Below the pieces are notes generated by a model, which did no database searches, was not told where the DNA came from, and was given only the letters and a program-made list of their open reading frames with translations. The position numbers were made by a program, and so were the translations under genes. Shown here in pieces: positions 250-63,999 of a stretch of 64,000 nucleotides of DNA (its first letter is position 1; every line of letters starts with the position of its first letter). The stretch is from Ginglymostoma cirratum (taxonomy: Eukaryota): the NCBI GenBank assembly GCA_024137785.1, contig JAHRHZ010000066.1, positions 26,405,135 to 26,469,134 on the forward strand, read 5' to 3'.

Positions 250-362
250 ATAAAACAAAGAACTGTGGATACTGGAGATCTGAACGCACAAAATCGAAAA
301 CAGCATCTGTAGAGAGAAAACAGAGTTGATGTTTTGAGTCAAGTGACCCTTCTCCAAAATGA
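250..362 (-). mobile_element. Short Penelope-tail element, degraded
   Basis: aaagaactgtggatactggagatctg...cagcatctgtagagagaaaacagagttgatgttttgagtcaagtgacccttc matches the family seen about 23 times in the window. Confidence 0.75.
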
Positions 363-439
363 GGGTGATGGGAGTTATGTCTCTCTCCAAGCCCCCACCC
401 CGCCATTTTGTCTACAAGCATATGGATTTTGTAGCTGTG

Positions 440-1110
440 AATATAGTCCATTTTCAAACTCCTGATGGAATGGAAGGTGGCTTAGGTGATCACCAAGGCG
501 CATGAGTGGGCAATGGGCCAGACCTACACGGTGTACAGCAATACTAGAAGCACATCGCACGTGATGATCGAGTTCTTGCCCAAATGGAGAAGTGGTGTCA
601 CTCCCATGTGTCCAGTTTTTATTTGACCACGGCTAGTCACTCCTTCCTTTTTTTAGTACACGCCTGCGCTCATTGAATCCAACTCCCTTGCAGCTTCAGC
701 TAATCTGACTAGACAGTGAAGGGGACAATGGATCATTTGAGCCAGTTCTCAAGGAACGTGGTCTCGCTCTTGCCTTGATTTACCTTGGATCCTGAGGCCT
801 GTTCAAACTGCTCACAGATGTTCATCAGTCTGTACACTGACAGCGGACCCAAGTCCAAGACGATGACATCATTCCTGTACACGGACGCTTTGGCCTGGTG
901 CATGCACTATCTGGGATCATCATCCCTCTTATATATCAGCATCCTGAATGGAAGAAGTTGTATACAACAGCCAAAAGGATTGGGAGAGAGAGGAAAGCCA
1001 TGCCTGACTGTAGATTTGATTGGAAAACTTTCTGATTCTCATTCATTAATTGAAGCTACGTTAATAATGATTGTGCAAAGCTGTTGCACAGGTTTCGCTT
1101 GGCAACAAGA
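440..1110 (-). mobile_element. Tx1-like (L1 group) LINE RT fragment, decayed
   Basis: Minus-strand translation ESESFPIKSTVRHGFPLSP...KASVYRNDV...LSVYRLMNICEQFEQASGSKVNQGKSE...LLYTV*VWPI resembles Tx1 RT; many stops. Confidence 0.8.
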
Positions 1111-1114
1111 GAAC

Positions 1115-1720
1115 TTTTGTCTGGAAGCAGGCCGTCTAGTCCATTGGAGTCCACTTTGTCATTCAATGAGATCGTAGCTGACCCGATAATCCTCAGCTTC
1201 ATTTTTCTGCCTTTACAATCCTTGATTCCCTTACTGATTAAAAATCCGCTTACTCCAGCATTGAATGTACCTAACAACAGACTTTACAGTCGTCTGTCGT
1301 GAAGACTTCCACAGATACACTATCTCTATGATAATACTTCCTCCTCAGCTCTGCCTTAATTGTGTGGCGCCTTATTCTGAGATTATGCCCTCTGATCCTA
1401 GACTCTCCCACAAGGGGAAACCATACCTCTGCAATTAATCTGTCAGGTTCCCTAAGAATCTTGTTTGCTTCAATAAGGTCTCCTCTCATTCTTCTAAACT
1501 GCAGTGAGTATTGATCCAATGTACTCAACCACTTTTCTAAGGAAAAGTCCCATCATTCCCGGGATCAGCATAGTGAACTCTGGACTGCCTCCGATGCCAA
1601 TATATTTTTCCTTCGTGAAGGACACCAAAATTATTCACGGTGTTCCAGCTGCGGTCTGACTATTGCCTAATATAGTTCTAACAAAGCCTCCCTAACTTTA
1701 TAATCCATTCCCATTGAATT
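1115..1720 (-). mobile_element. CR1 LINE 3' end
   Basis: ORF 1271-1528 RRMRGDLIEANKILR..FPLVGESRIRGHNLRIR is the CR1 ORF2 C-terminus; CR1 3' UTR gatctcattgaatg follows. Confidence 0.9.
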
Positions 1721-1821
1721 CTCCACTTATTAAAAAAATACAAGTTATTACGATTAACAATTAATCACAACTCAAAAGCAGCCAAACTGAGACAGTGAAT
1801 ATGGCTAACTTTATTTAGCTC

Positions 1822-2220
1822 TACTCTTGGCTCAGGTAGTAGAACTCTCACGTCCGAGTCAAAAGGTTGTAAGGTCAAGACAGGTCTTGGGAAATTCAGC
1901 CCAAAATTTCGGCTGGCACTAATTGCGTGGATGAGGGAGAACTGAACTCCCTCGGAGACGCTGTCCTGTAAATGAGACGGCGGGTGAAATCTGGAGCGAC
2001 TATGTGAGGAACCTTGGAGTCCTTTGTCAATAATTAGACCTCAACAAAAACCAGTAAAACGGATGTTCAGATTATTTATTTTTACTGCTGTTTGTGGAAA
2101 CTTGCTGTGTGCAAATCGTGTTTCTTATAACGTTGACTCATACTGCAAAAATATTTGATGGGTTGTAAAGTGCTGTCGGACGCCGGGGGCTTTGAAAGTG
2201 CTATCTCAATGCAATGTTTT
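1822..2220 (+). mobile_element. SacSINE1/Deu-domain-like tRNA SINE, old, CpGs retained
   Basis: tRNA-like head tggctcaggtagtag; body tgagggag..ctg..ggagacgctgtc..aatgagacg; tail ctgctgtttgtggaaacttgctgtgtgcaaat..gaaagtgctat..aatgca. Confidence 0.75.
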
Positions 2221-2268
2221 ATTTTTAAATTGCATCTAACATATTAATTTACCAACAGTAATTTTCTT

Positions 2269-2375
2269 CCAACAGGTCTGAAGAAGGGTCACTAGACCCA
2301 ATCGTAACTCTGTTTTTTCGGCGCAGACGCTGCCAAACCTGCTGAGTTTTTCCAGCAATTTCTGTTTTTTGTTTT
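2269..2375 (+). mobile_element. Short Penelope-tail element, hammerhead core degraded
   Basis: ctgaagaagggtcactagacccaatcg; flanking taattttctt at 2259-2268 and 2376-2385. Confidence 0.8.
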
Positions 2376-2499
2376 TAATTTTCTTTCTGTCTCACATATA
2401 GAATTGATTTTTTTGCTTACTTCGTTACTAAGCGATTTTAAATACTTTTGTGTTGTCGATTATAACTTTTCTAATTACAAGCACGGAGTTACATTTACT

Positions 2500-4330
2500 T
2501 AGCGCCTTAAGGAATCTCCCAGAAACGACACAGTATTTCATTGATTAGAAAAGTTCCATGGAATTTCTTAGGATTGATCTTGTAGGCACGAGAATCAACC
2601 ATGTTCTTGAATAAAGACATTAATTTTGCTGCTGCCTGGTCTCCAACGCGATTATTTATCAGTCAGTTGGCAGTTGTATGAATGCAGTTTCAATTGTGTC
2701 AATGGGAGGGGGAGGAGCCATAGGAATTCGCTGTTCAACTTTTTCATTCCGGGTCTCCATGCAGCACCGCAACGTGCCAGCTGAAGTTACGGCGTGGTGT
2801 GTATCACAGTAGAAACTCTCGCACCATCATTTCTACTTCAGAACAACAGGTGGACGCTGTGGTTACGCCGTTCCTATGGCGCAAGTTTTCAACAAATGTG
2901 GGCAAGAAATGTTCCTTCTCCTCTATTCATGCAATTATTTGTTGATGCAGTTAGTCCAGCTCATCCTTTAATTGAATGGAGATCAGATTGGAATGTTAGA
3001 GGTCTTAACTTCACTGTGTTCGTTTATTCAACGAGCGAAAAAGCCTTCACACTGCCACAAGTAACCAGAAGGCAATGATTGGATGATACGAAGACGGTGA
3101 GTGCTTCACAATGTGTTTAAACTAAAACAGACTAGCAGTGCTGAGTCACCAGAAAGGAACTAAAAGGTTGTTGTTTCTGCAGTTTCCTCACTTCCTCCAA
3201 GGGACATGTTCTTGATTAAAGCGGGACATATTGTAATCTGTTCTGTTTTATATTGTGTTAAGAAATCTGAAAGGGAGATAATTCACTCTACAGAGACAGC
3301 TGAAATTTACGAGTTGGACATCTAATCCCGCAATGCTAGCAGTTTGGAAATACTAATTCATTGCCACGTGGAGGATGGATGCTCTGGAGACACTGGGACT
3401 GAGCGGTTCAGGCTCAGAGAATGGAAATAGGAACATCGCAGTAATTCGAGTGAAAGAGATGTGACTCTGGGAAAGGACGTAACTTGCAACTCATTTCAGA
3501 ACTTCCCAAAGGTGTCTCCAGCCAGCGGGTAATTACTGAAGTGTAGCTTCTGATGTAACAAAACGGGGCAGTTAGGCTTGAGCACAGCAAGCTCCCAGGG
3601 ACATCGATGTGACAACGAGGGGCTAATCTATTCTTTGCTGTATTATTTGAGAAGTAAATCCTGGTCGGCATCGGGGGGATCTCGCCTGCTTTTCTAAGCA
3701 GCGCCGTGAGATCAGTTGAAGGTTGACGGCGACAGGGCAAAGCCAGACTTTGAAGTGACAACGTTTGGGCAACATACATACAAACTGGTTTTAACAAGGA
3801 AATTTTTCCAATCAGTGAAGTGAATTTGAAGTTAGGATCTCCTCTCCACTCCAGTATCAGCCGCTTCTGGTAAGATCCAATATCCCGCCCTCATTCCGAA
3901 GGAAACGTTCATATCGTTTGATGTTAAACTGACGAACTCACACTGGGAATCATGGATGTGGATCTTTACCTGCTCACAAGAACATTCCTCCAATATCTGA
4001 GTTTTAAGTATCCCTTTGTCAGGAGAAGGCTGTCCATTTTCCTCCGAGCAGTCTGAATCTTGTTCATAGGCTTTCTGAGGTGTTTCTTACCATCTCGTGA
4101 TCTCCCGAAGAACAACGGAGAGATAGTAATCTTTATCTTAATTCACGGCAGCTGAATATTAACGAACCAAGTATCTCGCTGTGTAAACCCGCGGTTACCT
4201 GGCAAAGCAGTATAAAGTGATTATAGATTATGCTGAGCAATAATGCTTCATCATTTGCTATTCGGCAGCCGACCATTCAGTCTCGCATCCTTCATCGGTG
4301 TATCCCTGGCACCATCCCTGAACAGTACAG
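2500..4330. promoter_or_regulatory. CpG-retaining promoter-like region with candidate first-exon splice donors
   Basis: CpGs visibly more frequent than in the bulk of the window; + donor ACG|gtgagt at 3096/3097; - donors at 4199, 4091 and 3970. Confidence 0.45.
3480..3760 (-). mobile_element. SacSINE1/Deu-like SINE
   Basis: Reverse complement of the SINE tail (cacagcaagctccc..gatgtgacaa) and body. Confidence 0.7.
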
Positions 4331-4336
4331 CTTTAA

Positions 4337-4441
4337 CAAAACCGGAAATTGCTGGAACAGCACAGCAGGTCTGGCAGCATTTGTGGAGAGAAATCAAGAG
4401 TTGAGGTTTTGGTTCAAGTGACCCTTCCTCAGAACTGAGTT
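4337..4441 (-). mobile_element. Short Penelope-tail element
   Basis: gaaattgctggaac..cagcaggtctggcagca..gtgacccttcctcagaac; 9-bp TSD cagctttaa at 4328-4336 and 4442-4450. Confidence 0.85.
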
Positions 4442-4633
4442 CAGCTTTAATTTCTTTTGGTTATACCCCCCTCCCCCCTTTCCAGATTCCAGTAGAGAAA
4501 CTTGATGTTCTGTATCTACATTATTAAATCCTTTAATAATTTCAGCATCTCAATTAATCTATTCCTTAAACTTCAGCAATCAAATCAGAAGTGATTGATA
4601 AATTGGATCAAACCTCTAGGTTAATAGTTTGGG

Positions 4634-4779
4634 AGAGATAGTAGGAACTGCTGATGCTGGAGAATCTGAGATAACACGGTGTAGAGCTGGATGAACACAG
4701 CAGGCCAAGCAACATCAGAGGAGCAGGAAAGCTAACGCTGCGGGTCGAGACCCTTCTTCAGCTCTACCCTGTGTTTCCT
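4634..4779 (-). mobile_element. Short Penelope-tail element (second subfamily) with hammerhead remnant
   Basis: Minus strand ctgaagaagggtctcgacccgcagcg (GAAA mutated); 13-bp TSD ttaatagtttggg at 4621-4633 and 4780-4792. Confidence 0.85.
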
Positions 4780-5009
4780 TTAATAGTTTGGGGATGTTCC
4801 GGCCTTCTATCTTGTCCATTGAGCACAGGCCAAGTCTATTGGCTAATTTTACAGCCATCTTCTAAATTACAGATCTAATTTGAGCAGCAAATATGAAAAT
4901 ATCCTGATATTGCGGTATAAGTTTGATGCATCAAACTAAGAACTGCCCTAATCCAACCTCACACAAGACAAACTGCGGAAGAACACATTATAGAACTTTG
5001 ATTTAATGT

Positions 5010-6195
5010 TTCATCAATTAATTGGAATTCTTTGAGGAAATACTACATGCTGTGGATTAAGGGAACCACTCTTTGTACAATACTTCAATTTCCAGAGACA
5101 TTTGATAAGGTGCCACATCAACAGTTATTGTGGAAAATAAAAGGTCATGCTGCAGGGTGTGACATGTTAGCATGGTTAGAAGATTGACTGGCTAACAGGA
5201 AACAGATTTTCCGGTTGGCAAGATGTAACAAGTGGTGTGCCACAAAGATTAATGCAGGGGCCTCAACATTTTACAATCATAAAAAAGATGTGGATGAAAG
5301 AAGTGAAGGTATGGTTGCTATATTTTCGGATGATGCAAAGATCAGCCAGAAAGGAGGTTGTGACAAATGACATAAGGAAGCTACAAAGGGATATGGATAT
5401 GTGAATGGGCAATGATCTAGCAAATGGAACGTAATATAGGAAAATTTTATATTGTCCATTTTGGCAGAAAGAATGAAACGGAGTATATTATCGAAATGGG
5501 GAGAGATTGCCAAGCTCTGAGGTGCAGAGGGATCTGGGTTTCCTAGTGCACAAATCACAAAAGGTTAGTATAGAGATACAACAAATGACTGAGAAAGCTA
5601 ATAAAATGTAATAATTTATGGCAAATAAAACTAGATACAAAAGTTGGGAGATTATGCTTCAGTTACACAGGATACTGGTGAAATCACACAGAGTATTGTT
5701 CATCATATTGGTCTCCTTATTTAAGGAAGGATGTAAATGCTCTGAAATAGGTTTCCTCGAGGATTACTAGACCAACACCTGGAATGGGAAAGTTGTCTTG
5801 TGAGATAGATTGGATAGGAAGCTTGGTATGCTGCAGTTCAGAAGAGTTTGTAGTAACTTGTTTATGGCATATAAGATTCTGTGTGAATGTGAAGAGGATG
5901 TTTCTTCTTGTGGGAGAATCTAGAACTATGGGTGAAAGTTTGAAAATATCTATGCAAGGCAGATATGAGAAGAGTTTCTTTCTGAGACAGTCAAGAGAAC
6001 TCTCATCCTTAAAAGACAGTGGAAGCAGAATCTTTGAATATCTTTAAGGCAGGGTTAAATAGATTCTTGGTGAGCACTGGATGAAAAGATATCTTGGATA
6101 GAAGGGAATATGGAGTACTCAGATCAGCTACTGTCTTATTGAAAAGTGGAACAGGCTTGAGGTGTCAAGTGGTCTACTCCTGCTCCTAATCTATA
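5010..6195 (+). mobile_element. CR1 LINE RT and 3' end, decayed
   Basis: FQRxFDKVPH, SGVPQ and FSDD-like motifs with frameshifts; CR1 3' UTR near 6120-6195. Confidence 0.9.
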
Positions 6196-6869
6196 TGATT
6201 GTATGGGCTGGCTTGTTAAAAGCTGAGATTCACACATGGACCACAGGCCACTTTGGACCCTTCTTACTTGTCATCTTGTCAAAATATTATTGTTCACTGT
6301 CACTATTTGAAATTATTTTTGAAGTCCAATTAAAGAAAAAAATGTCTTAAACAACATGAATATAACGCAACACACTATCTCACAGTAGCTTTCGGGAGCA
6401 TTTGATCATCAACTCCATAAACATAAAGTTAATCCATTTGGTTTCTGTGCTTTTGATAAATTGATTAATGAGGTGTATGAAAACACAATAATGGTAAAAG
6501 GTTAGAACATACATACAGTAGTGGAAAACAGCTGGTGTTTTAAGCTGCAAGTTACCAAAATTAATGTTGTTTTATATTGTACCACATTCCCTCCTTTGCA
6601 AAGGACAGGTTAGAGGGAACTTTGTACTACCTAACCAAAAGCAAAGCAGTTGGTCACAAGTCAGCATAGGTGATTAGCCTGGGATTACTCCTTTCCTTAT
6701 AGGATCATTTACGTTAATCTAATATTTACAGCATATGACATGGCAGAGACTGAAACTGGATGCCCGAGGCATCGCCAAACTCTTTGAAATTTTTGATTAT
6801 TTATATTTTCTTCCTATTTTAAAGAATATTTTCCTTTCAATGGTACTCCAAAACACGTATACTGCTTTG

Positions 6870-6990
6870 GAGACAGTAAGGACTGCAGATTCTGGAAGCT
6901 GGAGTCAATAAATGTGGAGCTGGAAAAGCACAGCAGATCAGATAGCATCCAAGGAGCAGGGAAGTCAATGTTTTGGGCCAAAACCCGAGT
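6870..6990 (-). mobile_element. Short Penelope-tail element
   Basis: gagacagtaaggactgcagat..tgtggagctggaaaagcacagcag..ggagcagggaagtcaatgttttggg. Confidence 0.75.
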
Positions 6991-7024
6991 GGGTTTGTTT
7001 TGAATTTACATTACAACAGTGACA

Positions 7025-7345
7025 CACCATAAGAAATAGGAGCACAAATAGACAATACAGCTCTGCTCTGCCAATCAATCTGATAATGGCTGAGCTTGGG
7101 CTTCAATTTCATTTTCCTGCCTGCTTTCCATATTCCACAAACCACTGAAGGAATGGAAGTCTGTCTATCCTGGTGTTAAATGCAGTCAGTGATGGTGCAT
7201 CCTCAGTCCTCTGGGGTAGAGAATTCCAAAGAATCACAATTGTTTTCATAAAGAAATATCCTCTCATCTCAGTCCATGCTGAGACTAATTCCTCAGCCAC
7301 TAGAAACAACCTTTATGGCTACCTTATCAATATCTTTCATAACCT
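7025..7345 (-). mobile_element. CR1 3' fragment
   Basis: ORF 7109-7309 TEMRGYFF..VILWNSLPQ. Confidence 0.85.
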
Positions 7346-7420
7346 TCAAAGTGCATCATTGACTGTAATGTGGATTATGACAGCAAAAGGTCATGAAAAG
7401 CATTATGTAAGTAAATACAG

Positions 7421-7477
7421 AGATAGCAAAGTGTGGAGCTGAAGGAACACAGCAGGCCAGACAGCTCTTGCTATCTC
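7421..7477. mobile_element. 57-bp foldback Penelope-tail insertion
   Basis: 17-bp TSD tatgtaagtaaatacag at 7404-7420 and 7478-7494; ends agatagcaa...ttgctatct are inverted. Confidence 0.85.
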
Positions 7478-7839
7478 TATGTAAGTAAATACAGTCTTTC
7501 TTTCTGTAACAGATATGAATAACTTATTTTAAGACAGTTGTCAAAATATTCTCTTGAATTATCAAAGTTCATAACAACCTATTTCTGTTATGCACATTAT
7601 TTATGCATTATCCTCTCTTCAGAGATAGCTGGATAAAATCTAAGACTGAATAGATTAGACCAAGAATGAAGACAAAAGAAGGATGAACTTATTAATTCTA
7701 TGTTTTGTTTTATGTTAGAGTCAGTTAGTTTCCCAAGGAAGAATCCAACAGAAATAGCACACACAGTTTTGCCCACAGTATTAATAGCATAGCTAAGTTG
7801 AGTGATTTACAGTGCATGAAGCTAAAAGACTATACAAGA

Positions 7840-8955
7840 TCAACACCCCATTGATTTCAAGGCAATGTTTATTACCAAGTATGGCAAAAAGATCCCTGAG
7901 CAAAACTGAACAATAGGGATCAAAGAGAAAAGCCTTCAGTGGCCATAGTCATACCTGATGAAACGAAAGTTGATTGTGATTTTTGGAGATTTGTCATCAC
8001 AGACCAGGATATCAACTTGTGAACTCCTCAGGTAGGAATCTTCAACCTGACCACTATCAGTTTCATTGTTAATGATCTTCCCTCTGCCAATGAGTCAAGA
8101 ATAGTGTTGTTTGCTGATGATTCCACAACGTTCAGATCCATGTATTGTGGTATCCTTTGGTATTGTGCAGCATCCAAACATGAGCTGACAAGTGACAGGG
8201 ACTATTGGCACCATGTAATTACCAGCTAAAAACCATTGTAACAAAATAAAAATGGAAAGAACTGTGGATGCTGTAAATCAGGAACAAAAACAGAAATTGC
8301 TGGAAACAAAATAAGCGCATTTATAACAAAAATAGAAATTTCTGGAAAAGTGAAACAAATCTGGCAGTATCTGTGGTGAGAAATCAGAGTTAATATTTTG
8401 GGTCAATAGATCCTTCCTCAGAACTCAGTTCACTTGTGTTGCTTTGACTTTCAATGGGACCTTCATTGTCACCATGACCCTGACCATTAATACACCTATA
8501 CAGCACCATCGAGCAGAAGTTGAACTGAATTCATATCAATGGTGCAGCCTCAAGAGGAAGTACTTCTTCAAACAAAGAGTTGTCAACATCTGGAACTTTT
8601 TGACAAATGGCAGTGAATGCTGCATCAGTTGTTAATTTTAAATCTGTGATAGCCAAATTTTTATTAAGCGAAGGTGTTAGGGGATATGGGGCAAAGGTAA
8701 CAATATGGAATTAGGCTACAGATTGGCCATTATCTCATTGAATGGCAGAACAGGCTGTAGGCGATGAATGGCCTACTGCTGTTCTTATGTAAGAACAGAC
8801 TGGCTAACTTCAGGACACTCCCTAACTCCTCCATTGCCTACAGGGCTTTAAGTGTGAATTGTGTTGGAGTATTCATCTGAATACTACCAACTCAAGAAGG
8901 TCAACATCACCCAGATTGGAGCAGTTTATTAATTCACTGGACTCAATGTCCACCC
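7840..8955 (+). mobile_element. Jockey-group (CR1/L2-related) LINE RT fragment with nested Penelope-tail (about 8240-8430) and CR1 tail (about 8550-8790)
   Basis: FIVNDLPS..VLFADD motif near 8060-8125; appears to be the same family as 18380-19010 and 33740-34507. Confidence 0.7.
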
Positions 8956-8957
8956 CT

Positions 8958-9310
8958 TGTGACAATACTATAGCTTCAAGAGATATATTTTACCCCCTTT
9001 TTAGGAAGAAACGTTGAGACAGATATATGGAGTGGTCTGCTCAAAAAACAGCTTGTGGAAGCTTTGTAATAACACTGTGGAGCTGGATGAACACAGCAGG
9101 CCAGGCAGCATCAGAGGAGCAGGAAAGCTGTCGTTTCGGGTAGGGAACTTTGTTTTTTTTTTCAAATTGGAACGGTGGAAACAGCTTTAGTGATGAGGTC
9201 AAGCTCCCACAGAACCAGAATTTTTAGTTTCAGCTTTCTGCAGTTGCTGGGTCTTGAAGCTGGATGTGGAAGCTCTTGTTTTTATTCTGTTACAGCTAAA
9301 AGCTGGGACA
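8958..9310 (+). mobile_element. LTR 5' fragment interrupted by a Penelope-tail element (about 9068-9148)
   Basis: Starts tgtgacaatactatagc; ctttgt occurs on both sides of the inserted element. Confidence 0.5.
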
Positions 9311-9319
9311 ACGCCCTGT

Positions 9320-11200
9320 TCTCGTCGCAAATAGTTATATTTCGGCATGGTCATACCACGTGAGCGGCCAGAGAACCCTGAGATGAACCGACAGGCAACT
9401 CCTTGACTAGTGCAGCGTTCCTTCACTATGCTACTGAAGCGGCCGTTTAGAGTTGATGCTTAAATCTCGGGCATGGGATTTGTCCCCCCAATCCAAGATA
9501 GGGCCAACTGCGCCAGATTGGCAGCTTCCGGGAAGGAGTGCGGGAGAAGGGCTTGGCTCCTCCCGTTTGTGTTGGGTTTTGTTTGGAGGTTTACCGTGTG
9601 GTTCACTCCAGGGCGTGGGCTATGTGTCCAGGGCATGGGGTTAACACAACACGCAGAGAGAAAAGAAACAGTGCAAATCCAAATAACTGACCAATCTCTC
9701 AGTACAGCCAAGCCCACGGAACAATCATTGGTCTGATTCAGGAAGAGGATAAATGATGGGATTGATAGTCTGAAGAGGTTTTAGGTCTTCCAAGTAACCA
9801 GATTGAATAAAATCCAACTACACTGAAATCGAACTCCCGGGTAGAATTACAGAGCACAAAACATCAGTTGAGCGTGGCCTGTGAAACCTATGCAGGACTA
9901 GCCACAAGCCGAGAGCAGGCCAGGAGCTTTGACCTGCTCTGGCAGGTTGGGAAAACTGCTGAGTTTCACCAGCAATTTCTGTTTCTGTTTCAGATCTCCA
10001 GCATTCGCAGTTCATGGTTTGATTTGACAAGGTTTCAGCAATGAGTTGACATGAGAATATAAGCTCAGCTCTCCGGTTTTAACTAAGGCTCATTTTTTTC
10101 AAAAAATCAAAAATCCACCGTACCTATAGTTACTGTTCGCGCCAACTTTAAATAGATAATCTATCAATTCTTTGATAACATTTTCACTTATGCCACGTTT
10201 TATGTTGTCCCCTAATTTACCCCCTTGGATGTCTCCAGGTGAGGACTTTAAAAGAGAAATTACACAATGCCGCGTTCCCTCAGCGTCCAGAAAGAGACAG
10301 TCAGTTCAGAGGAAGGGTCGCTCGATCCGAAACATTAGCTCTGATTTCTCTCCAAAGATGCTGCCAGACCTGCTGAGTTTTTCCAGCAATTTCTGTTTCT
10401 GTTTCAGATTTCCAGCATGCGCAGTTCTTTCGGATTTATTGAGAGACATGCTTGGGTTTGGTTCTGAAGAAAAATCATGTTGAACGGGAAAAGTTAACTC
10501 TGCTTCTCTAAGACCTGCTGGGCTTCTGCAACACTTCCTGGTTTTATTTTAATGACAGCCTTGGTTTGACCTTGCAGTTATGCCTGGCCTGGGGTGGGGG
10601 GGGGAGGTTAGAGAGAAGAGGAATCAGGCCGGAGGACACTCGGTGTCACACATGGACCCTGAATGTTGGGAGACTTGTGTCCGTTATCCTAGTTGACAAC
10701 GGGCATCATCTGAGTGTTTCCCTTTTCACCCGAGAATGAAAGGTGTCCAAGAGGGAAACACCATTTTACGGAGATAAAGCGGTGCCATTGGACGGGCAGA
10801 TTAATCGCCAATCTTTAATTACAAGGTAACCGGCTCCAACAGTGGGAGATTCCCCGTATGTTTTCAAAATTGCTACTTCTGCAACCCCTCCAGCCCCAAA
10901 GTCTCGCCTCCACTGAATCTACACCACTGACTGCACCCAACCCGCCCCGCTCCTTGGTGCCATTATGGTCCTGTTTTCTGAAATTTCCTCCCTCTCCCTT
11001 TCCGTCTCTCCCATCCTGACAAAAACTCATTCTCCACTTGCTGTCTGCTGTTCAGAATCCCCGCTCATCAGGGCGCGCTGTCACGTAATATGTTTGCAAG
11101 TAAAGGCGGACTTGCTGTGGTGTTCTTGTCGGTTAAGGCAGATGGTTTCCTTATGTTACAGATACGATATATAACTTCACTGTTAAATTGGAACCGTGTG
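9320..11200. promoter_or_regulatory. Second CpG-retaining regulatory-like region
   Basis: E-box CACGTG 9357-9362; reverse CCAAT 9517-9521; GAS TTCCGGGAA 9526-9534; GC box gggcgtggg 9611-9619; NF-kB-like gggagattcc 10844-10853. Confidence 0.4.
10301..10550 (+). mobile_element. Two tandem Penelope-tail elements with degraded hammerhead cores
   Basis: gttcagaggaagggtcgctcgatccgaaacatt.. followed by gttctgaagaaaaatcatgttgaacgggaaaagttaac. Confidence 0.8.
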
Positions 11201-11240
11201 CCTTGAAAACACGACTTCTAGTTATTATGAAGAAAAATAT

Positions 11241-11335
11241 TTCTGAAGAAGGGTCTAGGCCCGAAACGTCAGCCTTCCTGCTCCTCTGATGCTGCTTGGC
11301 CTGCTGTGTTCATCCAGCTCTACACCTTGTTATCT
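11241..11335 (+). ncRNA. Minimal hammerhead ribozyme motif in a Penelope-tail element
   Basis: CTGAAGA (11243-11249), stem II agggtctaggccc, GAAAC (11263-11267), GTC. Confidence 0.7.
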
Positions 11336-11443
11336 ATGACAACAAACGTTTTGTGTTTGGTCAAGGGTCTATGGGGAATATAAATTTCAGCCTCCAGGTT
11401 TCAGAGCTGGAGCTTAGTTCAGTGACTGTTCAAAGATTTTGTT

Positions 11444-11583
11444 GGGTGAAAACAAACTACTGCGGATGCTGGAATCTGAAACAAACACAGAAAGTGCTGA
11501 ACAAACTCAGCAGGTCTGGCAGCATCTGTCAAATAGAGAAACAGAGTTAACGTTTCGAGTCCAGTATGACTGTTCTTCAGAAC
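11444..11583 (-). ncRNA. Minimal hammerhead ribozyme motif in a Penelope-tail element
   Basis: Minus strand gtt-CTGAAGA-acagtcatactggactc-GAAAC-GTT-aac; 11-bp TSD aagattttgtt at 11433-11443 and 11584-11594. Confidence 0.7.
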
Positions 11584-11699
11584 AAGATTTTGTTTGATCT
11601 GTATGGTTAAAATATCTGCTCAATGCAATTTTCACAATTTTGCTTATCTTCCTTAGCACCGTTCTTGATTAACAAGATGGCGCATTGACGAGGCAAAAC

Positions 11700-13225
11700 A
11701 AAACATGTGAGGTTACTTAATAGAATGTATCCCAGAATGTTGTTGGAACTAAGGAAGGAAATTGCAAGACACCTTGCAGAATTATTTGTACCATCTTTAA
11801 AAGGGTGAGGCACCTGATCACTGGAGGATGGCTAATGTTGTGCCTTTAAGAAGGGCTGTAAGGAGATACTGGGGAAACTATAGACCTGCGAATCTGACTT
11901 TGGCTGTGGATAAATTGTTGGAGGTTATTATAAAAGATAGGATTTATGGACATTTAGACAGGCAAAAATTGATTAGGAGTAGTCAGCATGGTTTTGTGCG
12001 AGGAAAATGCATTTCACAAACTTGATTGAGTTTTTTGAGAAAGTTACCAAAAAGATTGAGGGCACAGCAGTAGACATTATTTATTTGAATTTTAGTAAAG
12101 CTTTTGACAAGGTTCCACTTGGTAGACTAATTGGTAAAGTTAGGTCACGTGGGATTCAGGGTGAACTTGCCAATTGGATACATAATTGGCTTAAGGGCAG
12201 GAAACAGAGAGTGGTGGTGGAGCTTTGTTTTCCAGACCAGAGGCCTGTGGCCAGTGGTGTTCCACAGGGATCAGTTCTGGGTTCTGTTTTGTTTGTCATT
12301 TATATAAATGATTTGGATGAGAATATAGAAGGCATACTTAGTAAGTTTGCAGATGACACCAAAATTGGTGGCATTGTAGACAGTGAAGAAGATTTTCTAA
12401 GATTTCAAAGGGATCTTGATCAAATGGGTTAATGGGCTGAGAAAGGGCAGATGGAGTTTAATCAGGATAAATGTGGGGAATTGCATTTTGGTACAACAAA
12501 CAAGGGTAGGGCTTATACAATTAATGGTAGGCCCTTCGGTAGTGTTATAGAGCAGGGGGACATAGGTGTTCAGGACATAATCCTTTGAAGTTTGCATTAC
12601 ATATGGACAGGGTGGTTAAAAAGGCATTTAGCACACTCAGTCTTTTGAGTATAGGAGTTGGGAAGTCATGTTAAGGTTATACAGGACACTGGTGAGACCT
12701 TTTCTGGAGTACTTGTCCAGTTCTAGTTGCCCAGTTATAGGAAGGATATTACCAAGCTAGAGAGGGTTCAGAAGAGATTTACCTGGATGTTGCAGTATGA
12801 AAGGTCTGATTTATAAAAAAAAAGGCTTGATAGGCTTGGACTTTTTTTTTCTCCAGAGTGTAGAAGGTCGAGAGATGACCTTATAGAAATGTATAAAATC
12901 ATGAGGGGTATAGATAGGGTTAATGGTAGTTGTCTTTTCCCTAGGATGGTGGATTTCAAGCCCAAGGTGAGAGGAGAGAGAGTTAAAAAAGATACGAGGG
13001 GAAAAATTTTTACAGAGAGGGATGTTGTCATGTGGAATGAACCTCCTGAGGAAGTGGTGGATACGGGCACGATTACAATGTTTGAAAGACATTTGGATAA
13101 GTACAGGAAAGGTTTGAGGGAAATGGGCAAGGAGCAGGCAGGTAGGACTAGTTTAGTTTGATTATTTTCAGCATGGACTGGTTGGACCAAAGGATCTGCT
13201 TCCCTTCTGTTTGACTCTGTGACCC
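11700..13225 (+). mobile_element. CR1 LINE RT and 3' end
   Basis: ORFs [43 protein letters not shown]. Confidence 0.95.
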
Positions 13226-13349: not shown

Positions 13350-13512
13350 TTGTTAAGTACTTTCAAGGATCAGGTAGACAGATTTTAATCAGTGAGGGAG
13401 TCAAGGGTTGTAGAAAAAAGGTAGGAGAGCGGATTATCAGATCAGCCATGATCTCATTGAATGGTGGAGCAGACTCATTGGGACAAATGCCCTACCTCTG
13501 CTCCTATGTCTA
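13350..13512 (+). mobile_element. CR1 3' UTR fragment
   Basis: agatcagccatgatctcattgaatggtggagcagactc..tgctcctatgtct. Confidence 0.85.
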
Positions 13513-14004: not shown

Positions 14005-14370
14005 TTTTTTTTTCCTTTATTCATTCATAGGATGAGGACTGTCACTGGTTAGGCAGCATTTATTGCCCATCCCTAATTGTCCAGAGGGCAGTTAAGAGTC
14101 AACCACAATGCTGTGGGTCTGGAGTCACATGTAGGCCAGACCAGGTATGGATGGCAGTTTCCTTCCCTAAAGGACTTTAGCGAACCAGATGGGTTTTTCC
14201 CGACAATCAACAATGAATTCATGGTCATCAATAGATTCTTAATTCCAGATATGTATTGAATTAAAATTCCACAATCTGCCATGGTGGGATTCAAACTCAG
14301 GTCCCTGGAACATTAGCTGGGTCTCTGGGTTAACAGTCCAGCGATAATACCACTTGGCCATCATCTCCCC
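14005..14370 (-). mobile_element. tRNA-derived SINE with LINE-derived tail
   Basis: Reverse complement of the SINE at 26978-27332; inserted in a LINE 3' fragment (about 13760-14420). Confidence 0.9.
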
Positions 14371-15379: not shown

Positions 15380-15540
15380 TTAAAACAGAAAGTGCTGGAG
15401 AAGCGCAATGTGTCTGGCAGCATCCATGGAAAGAGAAACTGGGTCAATCTTTTGAGTCCAACTTGACTTCTTAGGAGTTTCTCCAGCACTTTCTGTTTTT
15501 ATTTCAGATTGCCAGCATCAGCAGTATTTTACTTTTATTG
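15380..15540. mobile_element. Foldback Penelope-tail element
   Basis: aaaacagaaagtgctggagaa ... ttctccagcactttctgtttt inverted arms. Confidence 0.8.
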
Positions 15541-15666
15541 TGGTATGATTTCCTCTCTGACATCTTCACAACCTTTCGCTTCTGGAATTTTGTTCTAAAA
15601 AACTTGGGACTTCTCCCCTTCTGCCCTAGTTACTTTTGGAGACTGCTAAACTAATGGCACCTCTGA

Positions 15667-42932: not shown

Positions 42933-43229
42933 CAATGCACTGTTCCCTTGCCCAAGGCAGAATCTGAACCTTCTGTTGTGAAGGGATGTTCAGACAACTG
43001 TCATGGCCCAGTTTGGAAGCACTACAGCCACGTTAAGAAGCAGGCCAGTGAGTCACACAGTATCACAGGCTGCTGTGAGCTCTAGTAGCACCATACCTTT
43101 TCTTCCAGGTTTTCCTGAAGCCATTTTTAATGTGGGTTGTGAATATCAGTATTTGATCACATGTTTTGTTTCCCCTATGGAAACCAACATAGTTGACATT
43201 AAGAATAGCCTCTCCTTCCAAGGATATGT

Positions 43230-44152: not shown

Positions 44153-44352
44153 TGATAACAAAGTATGGAGCTGGAGGAAAACTGCAGGTCAAGCAGCATC
44201 AGAGAACAGGAAAGCTGATGTTTCTGAAGAAGGGTCCCGACCCGAAACATCAGCTTTCCTGTTCTTCTGATGCTGCCTGGCCTGCAGTGTTCCTCCAGCT
44301 CCACACTTTGGTATCTCTAACTCCAGAATCTGCAGTTCTTGCTATCTATCTC
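44153..44352. mobile_element. Foldback Penelope-tail element with hammerhead core in the loop
   Basis: About 70-bp inverted arms; CTGAAGA 44224-44230, gggtcccgaccc, GAAAC 44244-44248. Confidence 0.9.
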
Positions 44353-44354
44353 AT

Positions 44355-51000: not shown

Positions 51001-51718
51001 AATGGATGTCGAATGAGATTTGGGGGTTCAGGTGCATAGCACTTTAAATTGTAACAAACAGGTGCAGAAAATAGTCAAGGAGGCTAATATGGAACACAGG
51101 CCTTCACATCTAAAGCGCTGGAGTATAAGAATGCAGATGTTATGCTGCAGTTATATAAAAGACTAGTTGGACCCCACTTCGAGTACTGTGAGCAGCTCTG
51201 GGCACCACACCTTAGAAAGGATGCATTGACTTTGGAGTGAATTCAAACCAGGTTTACATGATTCAGAGCTTAAGTTATGAGGAGATGTTAGACAAGTTAG
51301 GCCCTTTTTCTCCATAATTTAAAAGTTTAAGGGGTGATCTAAGTGAAGTCTTCAGGATATTAACAGGGAAAGACTGGATAGATAAAGTTAACCTATTACC
51401 GCTGGTTGAAGATTCTAGAACCAGGAGGTAGATTCTAAGATTTAGGGCCAGCCCATACAGGAGAGATGTTAGAAAGCTCTCCTACATGCAAAGAGTATTG
51501 GAGGTTTCAAATTCTCTTCCTCAGATGGCAGTCAATGCTTATTCAATTGTTAAATTTAAATTTGGAATAGACAATTTTTATTAACCAAGGGTATCAAGGG
51601 ATATGGATACAAGGCAGGCATATGGAGTTAGGCCACTGATTAGCCATGTTCTCATTGAATGGCAGAACAGCCTTGAGGGGCTGAATGTCCTACTCCTATT
51701 CTATGTTCCTATATTCCT
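48060..51718 (+). mobile_element. Near full-length CR1 LINE (ORF1 zinc finger and SGNH esterase, endonuclease largely deleted, RT, tail) with an antisense CR1 insert at about 49771-50225
   Basis: YICRMC..LEQQ, QESPVAIPLSNKY, DTIVRGTDR, VVVHIGTN; RT FQKAFDKVPH, IFADDSK; tail ttctatgttcctat. Confidence 0.92.
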
Positions 51719-56189: not shown

Positions 56190-57670
56190 TCATCATCTCC
56201 CAGGATTCTATAGATTCTGCACAGTCCCTGAAGCTTGGAGGGTAGCTAATGTCACTCCATTATTCCAAAAGGGAGGTGGAGAGAAAATTATGTTTTAGAC
56301 CAGTGAGGAATTATAGACCAGTGATCCTAACATCGCCAGTGAGGAAAATTCTGAAATCCATTATCAAGGACTTTGTAGCAGACCATTTAGAGAGCAATGG
56401 CAGGATCAGACAGAGTCAGGATGGATTAATGAAGGAAAGACAATGCTTGACAAATCTGTTGGAATTCTATGAAGATGTAGCTCGTAGAGTCGACAAAGGG
56501 AAGCCAGTTGCTGTGGTGTATTTGGACTTTCAGAAAGCATTTGACAAAGTCCCGCCTAAGAGATTATTGTGCAAGATAAAAGCGCATGGGATTCAGGGAA
56601 ATGTATTGAGATGGATAGAAAACTAGTTGGCAGAGAGGAAACAAAGGGTAGGAATTAATGGGTCCTTTTCAAATTGACAGGTAGTAACTAATGGCGTGCC
56701 ACAGGGATCGGTGCTGGGACCCCAGCTATTCACAATATTTATTAATGATTTGGATGAGGGAACAAGAAGTAACATCTCAAAGTTTGCAGATGATAGCAAG
56801 TTGGGTGGGAGGATGAACTATGATGAGGATGCAGAGATCCTTCAGCATGTCCTAGACAGTTTGGGAGAGTAGGAAAATCAATGGCAGATGCAGTATAATT
56901 TGGATAAATGTGAGGTTATTCACTTTGGAAGCAAAAACAAGAAGGCAGATTACTACCTGAACAGTTGTAAATTGGGTGGGGGGAGTGTGCAGCAGGACCT
57001 GGGTGTCCTTGTACACCAGTCGCTGAAGGTGAGATGCAGGCGCAGCAGGTGGTAAAGAAGGCAAATGGTATGTTGGCCTTCATTGCGAGAAGTTTCGAGT
57101 ACAGGAGCAGGGGTGTGTTGCTACAGTTATACAGAGCCTTGGTGAGGCCGTACCAAGAGTATTGGGTGCAGTTTTGTTCTTCTTTTCTGAGGAAGGATTC
57201 TCCTGCTCTTGAGGAAGTGCAGCGAAGGTTTACCAGGCTGATTACCAGGACTGGTGTATAAGGAGAGAATTTTTAGGTTAGGGTTGTTTTCGTTGGAGTT
57301 TAGATGAATGAGGGGGGATATCATAGAGACTTATAAAATTCTAACAGGACTGGACAGGATAGATGCAGGGAGGATGTTCCCGATGGTGGGTGTGTCCAGA
57401 ACCAGGGGTCCCAGTATGAGGATTTGGCATAGACCATTTAGGACAGAGATGAGGAGACATTTTTTCACCCAAAGAATGAGCCTGTGGAATTCATTACCAC
57501 AGGAAGTAGTTGATGCCAAAATATTGATTGTATTCAAAAGGCGACTAAATAAAGCACTTGGGGCAAATGGGATCAGCTATTGAGTTGGATGATCAGCCAT
57601 GATCATGATGAATGGCAGAGCAGGCTCAAAAGGCCAAATGGCCTCCTTCTGCTCCAAATTCTATGTTTCT
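56190..57670 (+). mobile_element. CR1 LINE RT and 3' end
   Basis: [37 protein letters not shown]; tail ttctatgtttctat. Confidence 0.95.
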
Positions 57671-57699
57671 ATTTCTTTGACTCTTTGTGACGTTAAATT

Positions 57700-58562
57700 C
57701 GGCTGTTGTAGGTTGCAATGGGACATTGACAGGATGCAGAGCTGGGCAAAGACGTGGCAGATGGAATTCAACCCACAAAAGTGTGAAGTGATTCATTTTG
57801 GAAGGTCAAATTTGAATGCAGAATACAGGATTAATGGCAGGATTCTCAGCAATTGTGGAGGAACAGAGGGATCTTGGGGTCCACGTCCATAGATCCCTCA
57901 AATTTGCTACCCAAGTTGATAGGGTTGTAAGGAAGGCGTATGGTGTGTTGGCTTTCATTGGCAGTGGAATTGAGTTTAAGACCTGTGACGTTATGCTGCA
58001 GATCTATAAAACTCTGGTTAGACCACCCCTAGTATATTGCGTTCAGTTCTGGTCACCTCATAATAGGAAAGATGTGGAAGCTATAGAGAGGGTGCAGAGG
58101 AGATTTACCAGGATGCTGCCTGGACTGGAGGGCAGGTCTTATGAGGAAAGGTTGAGGGAGCTAGGGCTTTTTTCATTGGAGCGAAGAAGGGTGAGAGGTG
58201 ACTTGATAGAGGTGTACAAGATGATGAGAGGCATAGATAGAGTGGATAGTCAGAGACTTTTTCCCAGGGTGGAAATGACTATTACAAGGGGTCCTAATTT
58301 TAAGGTGATTGGAGGAAGGTATTGGGGAGATGCAAGAGGTAGGTTCTTCACACAGAGCGTGGTGGGCGTGTGGAATGCGCTGCCGGCAGTGGTAGTGGAG
58401 TCAGCTACTTTAGAGACTTTTAAGCGACTCTTGGATAGGCACTTGGAGGATAGTAAAATATAGGGAATGCTGGGTAGATTGATCTTCGTAGGATAATAGG
58501 TCAGCACAACATCGTGGGCCGAAGGGCCTGTACTGTGTTGTACTGTTCTATGTTCTATGTTC
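57700..58562 (+). mobile_element. Younger 5'-truncated CR1
   Basis: 215-aa ORF 57816-58463 is the CR1 ORF2 C-terminus; (ttctatg)n tail. Confidence 0.95.
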
Positions 58563-59759: not shown

Positions 59760-62700
59760 GCCTGATGCAAGAGTCAAGGATGTCTCTGAGCAGGCACAGG
59801 GCATTCTGAAAGGTGAAGGTGAACAGTCAGAAGACTAACAATATAAGCAGGAAGAGAGATGAGGTGATGTAAGTGGAATTTAAGGAATTAGGAAGAAAGT
59901 TGGAAAGCAGGATATCTAGGGTTGTAATCTAAGGATTACTCCATGTGCCATGTGTTAGTGAGGCCAGACATAGAAAGATAATACAGTTAAAAGTGTGGCT
60001 AAACATCTGGTGTAGGAGGGAGGCCTTCAGATACCTGCATCATTAGGATCTCTTCCAGGGCAGGAGGGACTGGTACAAGAAGGACAGGTTGCACCTAAAC
60101 TAGAGGGGCATGGATATCCTTGCAACGAGATTTGCTAGTAGCACTCAGGAGAGTACAAACTAGTGTGGTGGTGGGGTGGGAACTACAGCAGTAGGTCAGC
60201 AAGTGGAGTGATTATGGAGAAGGTAGAGGTTAAGTCAAGTAAGTCTAATAGGAAGAACACGCAGAACCAGGTTAATGAACACAGCAGGACTGGCAGTCTG
60301 TGATGTATTTATTTTAATGCAAGGAGTAGAACAGGTAACGCAGATGAGATTAGAGCCTGGATTTGTACATGGAACTATGATGTTGTAGCCATTACAGAAA
60401 CTTTGTTGAGAGAAGGGCAGGACTGGCAGCTCAACTTTCCAGGGTTTAGATGTTTCAGGTGTGAAAGACAGGAATGTAAAAGGGGTATGGACTTCTGTTA
60501 CTGATTAAAGTTACAATCACTATGATGCGATTATACTATAGGTTTCCCAATAGCCAGCAGGAGTTAGAGGAACAGATATGTAGACAGATCATGGAAAGAT
60601 GTAAGAATAACAGGGCTGTTGTAATGGGTGATTTTAACTTCCCTAATATTGACTGGGACTCTCTTTGTGCCAGGAGCTTAGATGGGATAGAATTTGTTTG
60701 CTGCATCCAGAGCGGCTTCGTAAAACAATACGTGAATAGTGATCATACGTTTTAAGATATATATTGGATAAGGATAAGACTGGTCCTTGGGAGAAAGTGC
60801 TAAACTGGGAGAAAGCTCATTACAACAGCAATAGGCAGGCGCTGGAGAAAGTAGATTGGGGCAGCTGTTTATGGGTAAATCTACACTTGATATGTAGAAG
60901 CCTTTAAAAGGCCAATCTATCAGAGTTCAGGATCAGCAATTTGTTTGTGACGATGAAAGATAAGGATGGCAAGATTTGGAAACCCTGGATAACAAAAGCT
61001 ATTATGAAAGTTTAGTCAAAAAGAAAAAAGAAGCAGGTGTGAAGTTTAGGAAACTGAAATCAGATAAGGCTCTTGAGGAATATAAAGGAAGCAGGAAAGA
61101 ACTTAAGGAATTAGAAAGGCTAAAAGGGGCCATGAAATATCCTCAGCAAGTAGAGTCAAGAAGAATCTCAACGCATTTTCTACGTATATTAGGAGCAAGA
61201 GGTTAGCTAGGGAAAAGATAGATCCACTCAAGGACAAAGGGAGAAATTCATGCATGGAGCCAGAGGAATTGGATGAGGTCCTTAATGAATACTTTGCATT
61301 GGTGTTCACCAAGGAGAAGGACATGTCTGATGGTAAGATTAGGGAAAGGTATATTGACATTCCAGAATATGTTAATATTAGTAGAGAGGAGGCATTGGGT
61401 GTTTTGGAAAACAGTAAGTTAGGTAAGTCCCCAGGCCCATGATGGCATCAATCCCAGGATATTGAGGGAGGCAAGCAACGAGATTACTGAGGCCTTGACA
61501 GAGATCTTTGTATCCTCTTTAGCTACAGGTGAGATTCCAGAAGACTAGAGAATAATTTATGTTGCTCCTTTGTTTAAAAGGGGCAACAGGGATAATCCAG
61601 GAAATTACAGGCTAGTGAACCTTATATTAGTGTCAGGGAAATTATTAGAGAAGATTCTTACCGTCAGGATTTACTTGTAGTTGGAAAAGAATATGCCTAT
61701 TAGGGATAGCCAGCATGTCTCTGTGTAGGGAAGATCTTGACTCACAGAAATTGATTCAGTTTTTGAGGACGTGACAAAGATGTTGGAAGAGGGTACTGCA
61801 GTGGATGTAATCTACATGGACTTCACTAAAGCATTTGACAAGGTCTGTTGTGGTAGGTTGACCTGGAAGATTAAGTCATTTGAGATCCATAGTGAGTTGG
61901 TAAGTTGGATCCAAAATTGGTCGTACAAGACAGAGGGTAGTTGTGGATGGATGTTTTTCTGACTGGAGATCTGTGAGCAGTGGTGTTCCACAAGGAGCAG
62001 TGCTTGGACCTCTATTGTTTGCAATATATATAAATGATTTTTTTGAAAATGTAGGTGTCCTTATCATTATGTTTATAGATGACCCAAAAACTGGTGGAGT
62101 TGTGGATAGTGAGGAAGGCTGTCAAAAGACACAGCAGGATATAGATCAGTTGAAATGTTGGAAAGTTGGGCAGAGAAATTGCAGATGGAGTTTAATTCAG
62201 ACAAGTGTGAGGTGTTGTACTTTGGGAGATCAAATATAATGGGAAATTATACAGTAAATGGCAGGACCCTTAGAAGCATTGACATACAGAGGGATCTTGG
62301 GTTGTAAGTCCATAGCAGCCCTGAAAGTGACAACAAAGTGGATAAGGTGGTAAAGGTAGCATTTGACATGCTTGCATTCATTGTTTTGGGCATTGAAGAT
62401 AAATGTTAGCAAGTCATGTTGGAGCTGAATGAAACTTTAGTTAGTCATAATTTGGAGTATTGTGTGCAATTCTGGTCACCACACTATACTGACCAGGATA
62501 TAGCCTAGATTGGAATATATTAGCTATAAGGAAAGGTTGGACAAACTTGGATTATTTTCTATAGAACTTTGGAGGCTGTGTGGCAATTTGATACAAGTAT
62601 ATAAAATCAAAAGAAGCATGGATAGAGTGGGTAGTCAGATCCTTTATCCCCCAGGGTGGAAATATCAAATAGATTTAAGATAAGAGGAGGAAAGTTTAAA

Positions 62701-62945
62701 GGCGATGTGCAAGGCAAGCTTTTACACAAAGAGTGGTTACATGCTGCCAGGGAAGGTGCCAGAGCAGATACAATGGCAACATTTAAGAGGTATTTAGACA
62801 CATGAACAGGCAGGGAATGGATAGAAGTGGACTGGTGCAGACTGATGGCATCAGTTTAGAATGGCATCGTGGTCAGCATGGACATGATGGTTCGAAGGGC
62901 CTGTTCCTGTGCTGTACTTTTCCATGTTCTACATTCTATGTTCTA
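59760..62945 (+). mobile_element. Long CR1 LINE (ORF1 C-terminus, partial endonuclease, RT, tail)
   Basis: Esterase end; IYFNARS, VVAITET, VMGDFNFPNIDW; YMDFTKAFDKV; SGVPQGAVLGP; tail ttctacattctatgttcta. Confidence 0.93.
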
Positions 62946-63840
62946 TTTAAGGACTAAGCAAAGATTTTAGCTAAATCAAGTCCCTCATTGGAAGCAGAAT
63001 CATCGTCTGACTTACTATTTCTTCTTCCTTTTTTTGCTGTAAGCTATTCCCCCGCAAAATCATGTTACCTGATTTCTGTTTCTCCTTAGAGTTCAAGCAT
63101 TTTGTAAATTCCATCTCCCCTTACATTACCCTCTATTACTCTTTATCCTCTCTTTCCAGTTCAAGCTTTCTCTTTTCCAATTCTCTTTTCCTTTCTTTCA
63201 CCTCCCTTTCCATCTCTTTTTTTCTTCTCTTCATCATCTAATTCAAGTCTTCCATTTCTCTTTCTCTGTCTTTGCTCTCCAACTCAAAGTTTTCTAATTT
63301 CCAACTTAAAATTCATTCATTCCAGTTGTACCATCTCAATTTCAGGTTCCTCTCCTTTTAATTCTCTACTGAGGTAACTAGTTCCCCAAACTGGTCCTAA
63401 ACACCTTCTGGGAGAGAAAGAAAACTGAACTCAACCCTGGTATCTTCTGAACAGAACTAAGTTGAAAACAAAGCTAATAGCCTGACGTAATTATTCTAGC
63501 TTTTGTAACCCAACAATATAAACATCTTCTATTCACACCACAGGTGTTGGTAGACCCATTTTGTGATAAATTGATGAATTTGGTCATGTTCTAGAAAGAC
63601 ACTCTTTTTAAAATCTCCTCACAGAAATAACCAATACTGATCTGCCTTTATTTAGAAATGTAAATTTCAAAAATGATATACGTAAATATATATACTACTC
63701 ACATTTGACAGTAAGAGGAAGGTTTGCCCTGTTGGACAGCAAAAATGTGATTTACATGTGGAGGTACAGGATCTGGCTTATATACTAAGTTAGCGTTTTG
63801 CATCTATCTTCAGCAAGAAATTTCATAAGATTAAGTTAGG

Positions 63841-63999
63841 ACTGAAAACAAAAAATACTGGAGGTCACAACGGGTCTGGCAGCATCCATGGAGAGCTGAA
63901 ACTCTGATGAAGAGTCATCTAGACTTGAAACGTTAGCTTGCTTTCTCTCCATGGATGCTGTCTGACCCGCTGTGATCTCTACTATCTTTTATTTTCAGT
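63841..63999 (+). ncRNA. Foldback Penelope-tail element with canonical CUGAUGA hammerhead core
   Basis: CTGATGA 63904-63910, agagtcatctagactt, GAAAC 63927-63931, GTT; imperfect inverted arms 63841-63895 and 63945-63999. Confidence 0.75.

Follow-up and report, generated by a model that had tools for sequence, protein, structure and literature searches.

Known systems and the shark locus

Insertion units of canonical, endonuclease-positive (EN+) Penelope-like elements (PLEs) are described as head-to-head inverted arms with a tail on one end only, bounded by target-site duplications (TSDs) of about 8-18 bp, heavily truncated at the 5′ end, joined through microhomology, with a minimal hammerhead some 90-130 nt away from the 3′ ends (PMC3846280; PMC8557442; statements on published systems throughout this text reflect excerpts of the papers cited). 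A 64,000-nt stretch of the genome of Ginglymostoma cirratum (assembly GCA_024137785.1, contig JAHRHZ010000066.1, positions 26,405,135 to 26,469,134), hereafter the window, holds a dispersed set of short insertions which share these traits. Four marks of EN+ PLEs, the minimal hammerhead, the two-ended tail, the inverted arm and the TSDs, are found in them and support a PLE origin, as had been proposed from the letters of the window alone (hereafter the sequence-only reading). The window copies differ from the published units in that all are 44-203 bp long and devoid of an open reading frame (ORF), with their 5′ ends piled up at the hammerhead edge, whereas truncation of the published units is described as variable.

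The closest biochemical counterpart is Poseidon of Anolis carolinensis (PAc), in which, in vitro, two start sites of the reverse transcriptase (RT) downstream of the hammerhead define the tail as the interval between them and the RNA template is uncut, with no ends at the cleavage site, as in the window copies (PMC11167929). The PAc start sites are located in an AC-rich stem-loop 111-118 nt into the ORF, the ATG of which lies at stem II, while the window copies possess U-rich ends and a conserved ATG about 45-55 nt after nucleotide C3 of the hammerhead core; usage of one start site per DNA end is not shown in the excerpts of the PAc report. Metazoan minimal hammerheads of fishes, coelacanth, Xenopus and reptiles share with the window motifs the extra base before stem II, the G10.1-C11.1 pair and a palindromic, vestigial helix III, and occur, as here, as thousands of single copies attributed to truncated PLEs, copy ends not being mapped in the excerpts of that survey (PMC4209133). 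Animal non-LTR retrozymes are likewise non-coding, with a type I hammerhead, kinship to the pseudo-long terminal repeats (pLTRs) of PLEs and long TSDs, but form head-to-tail tandem repeats with one hammerhead per unit and circular RNAs (PMC7229834; bioRxiv 10.64898/2026.07.22.740005), whereas the window copies are scattered singly or as head-to-head pairs, most of them with dead cores.

With a probability of about 0.6, we read the window copies as TSD-flanked insertions of the hammerhead-bearing end module of two PLE families, produced by run-off of an uncut longer PLE RNA primed internally. A literature search retrieved no paper on such short copies in sharks, with Repbase, Dfam and most subscription journals lying outside its reach.

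Census and the 5′ boundary

A search with nhmmer and seeds drawn from the window itself recovered 28 arms at 23 loci, which occupy about 4.3% of the window. In a second round one more copy, consisting of the tail only, was recovered (37372-37421), with a single match at E 0.48 in the reversed-window control, and three further short inverted arms were read off TSD-bounded inserts, so that 32 arms at 24 loci were counted in total, very short arms being under-detected. The arms belong to family A or to family B, of which C, at 63904, is a variant; both families have the core as well as a body motif, and several subfamilies differ in the length of loop II. The sequence-only reading, which had counted about 23 copies in at least two subfamilies, thus stands in this respect. 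Coordinates on the arms are counted from C3, and arm ends were read by hand with an accuracy of about +/-3 nt.

The 5′ ends are not randomly distributed with respect to the core, in line with the earlier remark that several copies start within a few nucleotides of it: each of the 20 arms extending as far as +8 ends no further out than -9. In the interval from +9 to +70, just 7 of 27 arms end, which equals 0.0049 per nt, and at this rate 8% of arms would be expected to stop over the 18 nt of the boundary. Calculated only from the 11 arms that have a TSD or a junction as their boundary, one of these TSDs (10300) being weak, the probability of the boundary arising by chance is about 1e-12. Of 31 arms, none has its start 3 nt or less away from +28, the first base of the cleavage product, and the 32nd arm starts at about +95. 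As no arm starts at the cleavage site and the sequence upstream of the cut is kept, the template RNA was uncut.

Upstream of the boundary, no sequence is common to the 23 window arms compared. At the boundary, four B arms begin with TCAG at -6, five B arms have CAG at -5 to -3, and the family A parent recovered from relatives (see below) has an A at -4 within a pyrimidine context. The TCAG at -6 and the A at -4 resemble, as judged by sequence, the consensus of the RNA polymerase II (Pol II) initiator. Initiator-like words have also been noted in pLTRs (PMC3846280).

The 3′ ends, the tail and the target-site duplications

The 3′ ends of the arms fall into two classes, a feature absent from the sequence-only reading, as they are located either at about +92 from C3 (short) or 30-40 nt beyond, at +123 in family A and +133 in family B (long). 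The 30-40 nt between the two ends is the PLE tail, which is known as an optional extension of 30-40 bp (PMC8557442; PMC3846280). Within the arms, the conserved ATG opens MLP, MLL or MLS in 14 of 16 translated arms and may, from this analysis, represent the ORF start of the parent element; in Pen2a, pLTR plus tail span the first 12-22 codons (passages in PMC8557442 or PMC3846280). A weak protein search, which gave 23 candidates with none at E 0.01 or better, provided no confirmation.

TSD scores of at least 11 were obtained at 7 of 23 loci compared to 1 of 544 in the null, with a score of 10 at one locus and of 9 at another. The claim that copies possess their own TSDs holds for these loci and not for the remaining 14 of the 23 tested, the TSDs of which are not above the null. 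The TSDs bound short inserts, which supports the notion, also put forward earlier, that the copies inserted as short units. The 24 loci are as follows, with single-arm 5′ ends given relative to C3:

247-358, minus strand: family B single arm; start about -2; long (tail) 3′ end; 11-bp TSD (236-246 / 359-369)
2271-2375, plus strand: family B single arm; start about -7; short 3′ end; 12-bp TSD with 1 mismatch
4337-4441, minus strand: family B single arm; start -9 to -6; short end; 9-bp exact TSD (13 bp with 1 mismatch)
4634-4779, minus strand: family A two-arm; inverted arm of about 21 nt from the short end, CTG microhomology, sense arm from C3 to the long end; 13-bp TSD
6872-6986, minus strand: diverged family A arm; start about +8; long end; TSD not above null
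7421-7477, minus strand: family A two-arm; inverted tail (+109 to +123) and sense arm from +48 to the short end, non-overlapping; no core; 17-bp TSD
8262-8426, minus strand: family B arm (start about -6, short end), then a partial tandem piece (about +75 to the long end)
9055-9178, minus strand: family A arm; decayed core; unexplained leader of 24-28 nt; borderline 9-bp TSD
9948-10010, plus strand: family B arm without core, truncated at about +62; long end
10300-10441, plus strand: family B single arm; begins with TCAGTT (-6) and runs to the long end; 7-bp TSD, within the null range
10460-10550, plus strand: diverged family B arm; core bases intact, stem II damaged
11239-11335, plus strand: family A arm; start -4; short end; best core 11243-11270, predicted cut between 11270 and 11271
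11446-11583, minus strand: family B single arm; start -3; long end; core 11580-11549; 13-bp TSD with 1 mismatch
15382-15542, unstranded: family B two-arm; minus-strand arm from about +1 to the short end, plus-strand arm from +67 to the long end
21409-21608, unstranded: family A hairpin; inverted arm (+11 to the short end) and sense arm (+4 to the long end); 18-bp TSD
28454-28545, plus strand: family B arm; starts TCAGTT; short end
37372-37421, plus strand: tail-only insertion (about +95 to the long end); 11-bp TSD (37361-37371 / 37422-37432), read by eye
40468-40558, minus strand: diverged family B arm; start about -4; short end
41225-41340, unstranded: family B two-arm; inverted tail (+108 to +132) and sense arm from about +2 to the short end, non-overlapping; 11-bp exact TSD
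41600-41745, minus strand: family B single arm; start about -5; long end
42825-42933, plus strand: family B arm; starts TCAGCT; short end
44156-44358, unstranded: family A hairpin; inverted arm (+20 to the short end), TTTC microhomology, sense arm from -3 to the long end; core 44224-44251
60257-60300, minus strand: family A fragment; no core
63842-63998, unstranded: B-related (subfamily C) two-arm; inverted arm from +41 to the short end; core 63904-63934; sense arm incomplete, as the window ends within it

The density of the loci is uneven, with 13 of the first 23 found at 1-12000 of the window.

Two-arm insertions

Seven of the loci are head-to-head pairs of arms, which the sequence-only reading had not described. 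Each of the six complete two-arm copies combines one short-end arm with one long-end arm (p about 0.013, given the 10:7 split among single arms), and the arm junctions, read by eye, carry 1-4 nt of microhomology; the short inverted arm at 4634-4779 is weak when taken alone (null fraction 0.018). The inverted arm matches its own partner best in three of four cases. An inverted copy with the tail at one end is a published pattern that has been interpreted as self-priming (PMC3846280). At 7421-7477 and 41225-41340, where the inverted arm consists of the tail alone and does not overlap with the sense arm, a single folded-back cDNA cannot produce the structure, while two primings can. Both of these tail-only inverted arms stop about 15 nt short of the short start site (n=2), as if, speculatively, a second RT blocked their extension there. 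A search for literature combining Penelope with twin priming yielded, as judged by title or abstract, nothing on the PLE mechanism.

A scan of the window against Rfam recovered no hammerhead at E 1 or better and five sub-threshold matches, three of which fall on hairpin insertions. Those at 21435-21551 and 44180-44288, which have arm words in common, match mir-1791 (E 0.0004) and mir-2131 below threshold; hairpin insertions of this type mimic pre-miRNAs.

The hammerhead motif

The hammerhead motif itself is real, as a strict scan for minimal hammerheads found three motifs (11243, 44224 and 63904) compared to a mean of 0.045 over 200 shuffles. All four cores singled out by the sequence-only reading are located where it had placed them, with the reservation that the 44224 core has GAAAC-ATC instead of GTY and that the 11580 core fails the strict scan solely by its broken stem II closing pair G10.1-C11.1. 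The assertion that many copies carry the CTGAnGA core is to be narrowed, since all conserved core bases are kept in only 5 of 16 aligned core-bearing arms, and the ACGT palindrome in just 3 of those 5. Core losses accumulate at CpGs, affecting G12 in 5, C15.2 in 5 and G16.2 in 6 of the 16 arms. Pairing amounts to 88% in helix II and 78% in helix I and its register outscores all slid controls, with helix III vestigial and helix I weak in family A copies. For the stem covariation which the earlier reading had called for, the observed score was reached by 78 of 500 shuffles, with 5 changes on both sides of a pair, in 2 pairs.

Predicted folds are weak and no better than those of shuffles (RNA z -1.4 to +0.6; cDNA strand -1.9 to -4.7 kcal/mol). 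For monomers of A and C, the prediction places the CUGA core in an inactive hairpin, and co-folding of dimers is uninformative because the minimum-energy forms are non-hammerhead duplexes. The motif is most plausibly an inherited one undergoing decay. Cleavage by published minimal hammerheads is poor, dimers included; the PAc hammerhead requires protein (PMC11167929), and eight of nine Xenopus dimers are reported without cleavage (bioRxiv preprint).

Abundance in relatives and the search for a parent

Public runs of related organisms were aligned at 80% likeness to 10250-11650, a region with four copies. Placed contigs numbered 157,318 of 15.6 million in run X2, 18,048 of 1.6 million in X1 and 16,730 of 1.3 million in X17, and 0 of 6.7 million raw reads of run X21 were placed on this region. 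Contig depth is nearly confined to the element copies, and the families are clearly very abundant in the relatives, contig counts being different from copy counts. As X2 also spans the unique flank (about 730 bases, with 28 other letters and 31 gaps) and enters the copies at 11239 and 11446, these two insertions are shared with a close relative.

Among the matches listed, 112 contigs of X1 extend 5′ of family A at 11239 into a C-rich stretch with an agreement of 0.47, and 137 contigs of X1 and 120 of X17 have loose ends at 11240 (-3), with unlike flanks (agreement 0.35-0.38). These loose ends at 11239/11240 indicate that a longer family A parent exists and that many copies start at -3 or -4. 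Loose ends at sites matching the 3′ ends, again among the matches listed, are found at 10398 and at 10418 and 10430. Within the window, the leader at 9151-9178 (24-28 nt), located between the borderline TSD and the decayed core, is C-rich followed by an A run and may be a remnant of the upstream parent sequence of family A. In X17, one single contig, its intervening letters unread, jumps back from 11342 to 11271, the first base past the predicted cut.

Searched with Pfam, all 191 of the 191 stop-to-stop ORFs of the window (at least 68 aa) gave just LINE (long interspersed element) fragments with RVT_1 and Exo_endo_phos and one weak OSK match. A motif scan of metagenome and viral contigs gave 0 matches; matches of a second motif (4 + 1) show little likeness beyond the motif and lack both element ends and were taken as chance.

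Proposed mechanism and rival explanations

PLEs are known to initiate reverse transcription internally at two sites which define the tail, to cleave and extend both DNA strands and to use unprocessed RNA (PMC11167929), and to possess an internal pLTR promoter (PMC2377424). For the window copies, the RT would start on uncut RNA, from internal priming sites located 90-130 nt downstream of the hammerhead, and would run off at an RNA 5′ end lying at the front edge of the hammerhead, so that the boundary would correspond to a transcription start just 5′ of helix I. Priming at the 5′-proximal RT start site of a longer PLE RNA would produce the bulk of the copies in a 'strong-stop'-like manner, and two-arm copies would derive from two primings, one per start site and one per DNA end, joined by microhomology. 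The ribozyme would be a passenger subject to neutral decay after insertion, and most copies are likely dead run-off products and not a self-cutting family.

Several observations weigh against this run-off from a longer RNA. The boundary starts are scattered over about 17 nt and do not fall on a single base, and no transcript 5′ end was observed. Penelope of Drosophila virilis has an internal promoter and begins transcription about 120 nt 5′ of the hammerhead (PMC2377424; PMC4209133); a transcript start at the edge of helix I would differ from this. Among the matches listed, family B shows neither an upstream parent sequence nor a 5′ loose end, and none of the 191 window ORFs matches the GIY-YIG family (Pfam) as expected of an autonomous parent. 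The two arms of 44156-44358 have three substitutions in common which are absent from the six other family A arms compared, and a diverged short template fits these as well as gene conversion.

The sequence-only reading had left a choice between truncated Penelope copies and a family resembling short interspersed elements (SINEs), and the longer family A parent in the relatives speaks for the former. We consider it possible, at clearly lower odds than the run-off, that the module of 95-140 nt is a self-transcribing, PLE-mobilised SINE analogue, with an internal Pol II promoter at the hammerhead edge and RT sites, remobilised in trans by the PLE protein and requiring neither a Pol III promoter nor an RNA 3′ end. 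Tentatively, such a reading would include dispersed short masters and twin priming in which each DNA end uses one RT start site. The fixed boundary of the core-reaching arms, the very high copy number in relatives, the subfamilies of differing loop II length and the private substitutions in both arms of 44156-44358 are consistent with it, as are the internal PLE promoter (PMC2377424), the independence of the RT from the RNA 3′ end (PMC11167929) and the non-autonomous PLE derivatives known from Chlamydomonas (PMC8557442). However, longer family A relatives share the C-rich upstream sequence, the losses in cores and helix I are uncompensated, the shared substitutions could stem from gene conversion between hairpin arms, and no Pol III A/B boxes were found on either strand of the 5 of 24 loci tested. 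Run-off from a longer RNA and short masters are not mutually exclusive.

Less probable still, the boundary might reflect a structural or processing barrier, i.e. stalling of the RT, fold-back of the nascent cDNA or its annealing to the other primer, in each case past the palindromic stem II, or a splice site at helix I. The junctions 21485 and 44222 are located in or beside stem II and have microhomology, and palindromes at pLTR 5′ junctions have been read as self-priming (PMC3846280); the 5′ end of helix I marks the end of the intron in D. virilis (PMC4209133), and the CAG in five B arms and the pyrimidine-rich upstream sequence of the A parent would agree with a splice site. Nevertheless, single-arm copies retain the CAG and are hence not derived from spliced RNA, and the predicted folds do not exceed those of shuffles. 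Moreover, an RT usually stalls at the 3′ foot of a hairpin and not past it. An origin as retrozymes, self-cleaved and circularised RNA units inserted as monomers, is highly improbable despite the type I hammerhead, the single X17 contig and the report of non-LTR retrozymes in one chondrichthyan genome (bioRxiv 10.64898/2026.07.22.740005). The CpG decay of the cores, covariation within the range of shuffles and the lack of tandem arrays argue against the retrozyme-like, ribozyme-defined character that the sequence-only reading had suggested: no array of these units is detected by TRF, the neighbours 10300 and 10460 belong to different subfamilies, no arm begins at the cut, the canonical type I fold with a helix III is lacking, helix III being vestigial and Rfam giving no hammerhead at E 1 or better, the A and C monomers are predicted to lock CUGA away, and the two-ended tail architecture is a PLE trait.

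Other repeats in the window

Two further pairs of inverted repeats are present: 35837-36050 / 36526-36739 (214 nt, 98% complementary, 475 nt apart), probably a young MITE (miniature inverted-repeat transposable element) or DNA transposon, and 33197-33337 / 33678-33818 (141 nt, 94% complementary, 340 nt apart). A CTGAAGA...GAAA look-alike inside the 35837-36739 element is not a hammerhead. An unrelated repeat of about 350 nt occurs in two inverted copies (14016-14368 / 26978-27329, 81-90% alike, 12.6 kb apart). Fragments of broken LINEs that match RVT_1 and Exo_endo_phos, which we take to be CR1-like, are found at 11801-13158, 56246-58460 and 60480-62236, and six copies of an unrelated repeat of about 73 nt (6122-6194, 8721-8793, 13440-13512, 25476-25548, 51638-51710 and 57591-57663) are probably LINE 3′ ends.

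Implications for the PLE transposition cycle

As an element class the window copies are ordinary, being further PLE-type insertions, plus two testable mechanistic clues. The transposition cycle of PLEs is still poorly defined, and miniature insertions provide a compact record of it. The sharp 5′ limit of the arms yields a prediction for the start of the template RNA and shows that copy ends are not determined by the ribozyme cut. The rule of one short and one long arm, together with the two cases of non-overlap, suggests that each insertion involves two primings, in keeping with the pair of RT start sites and the protein dimer predicted for PAc. The existing in vitro system would allow a test of both predictions, the boundary and the two primings.

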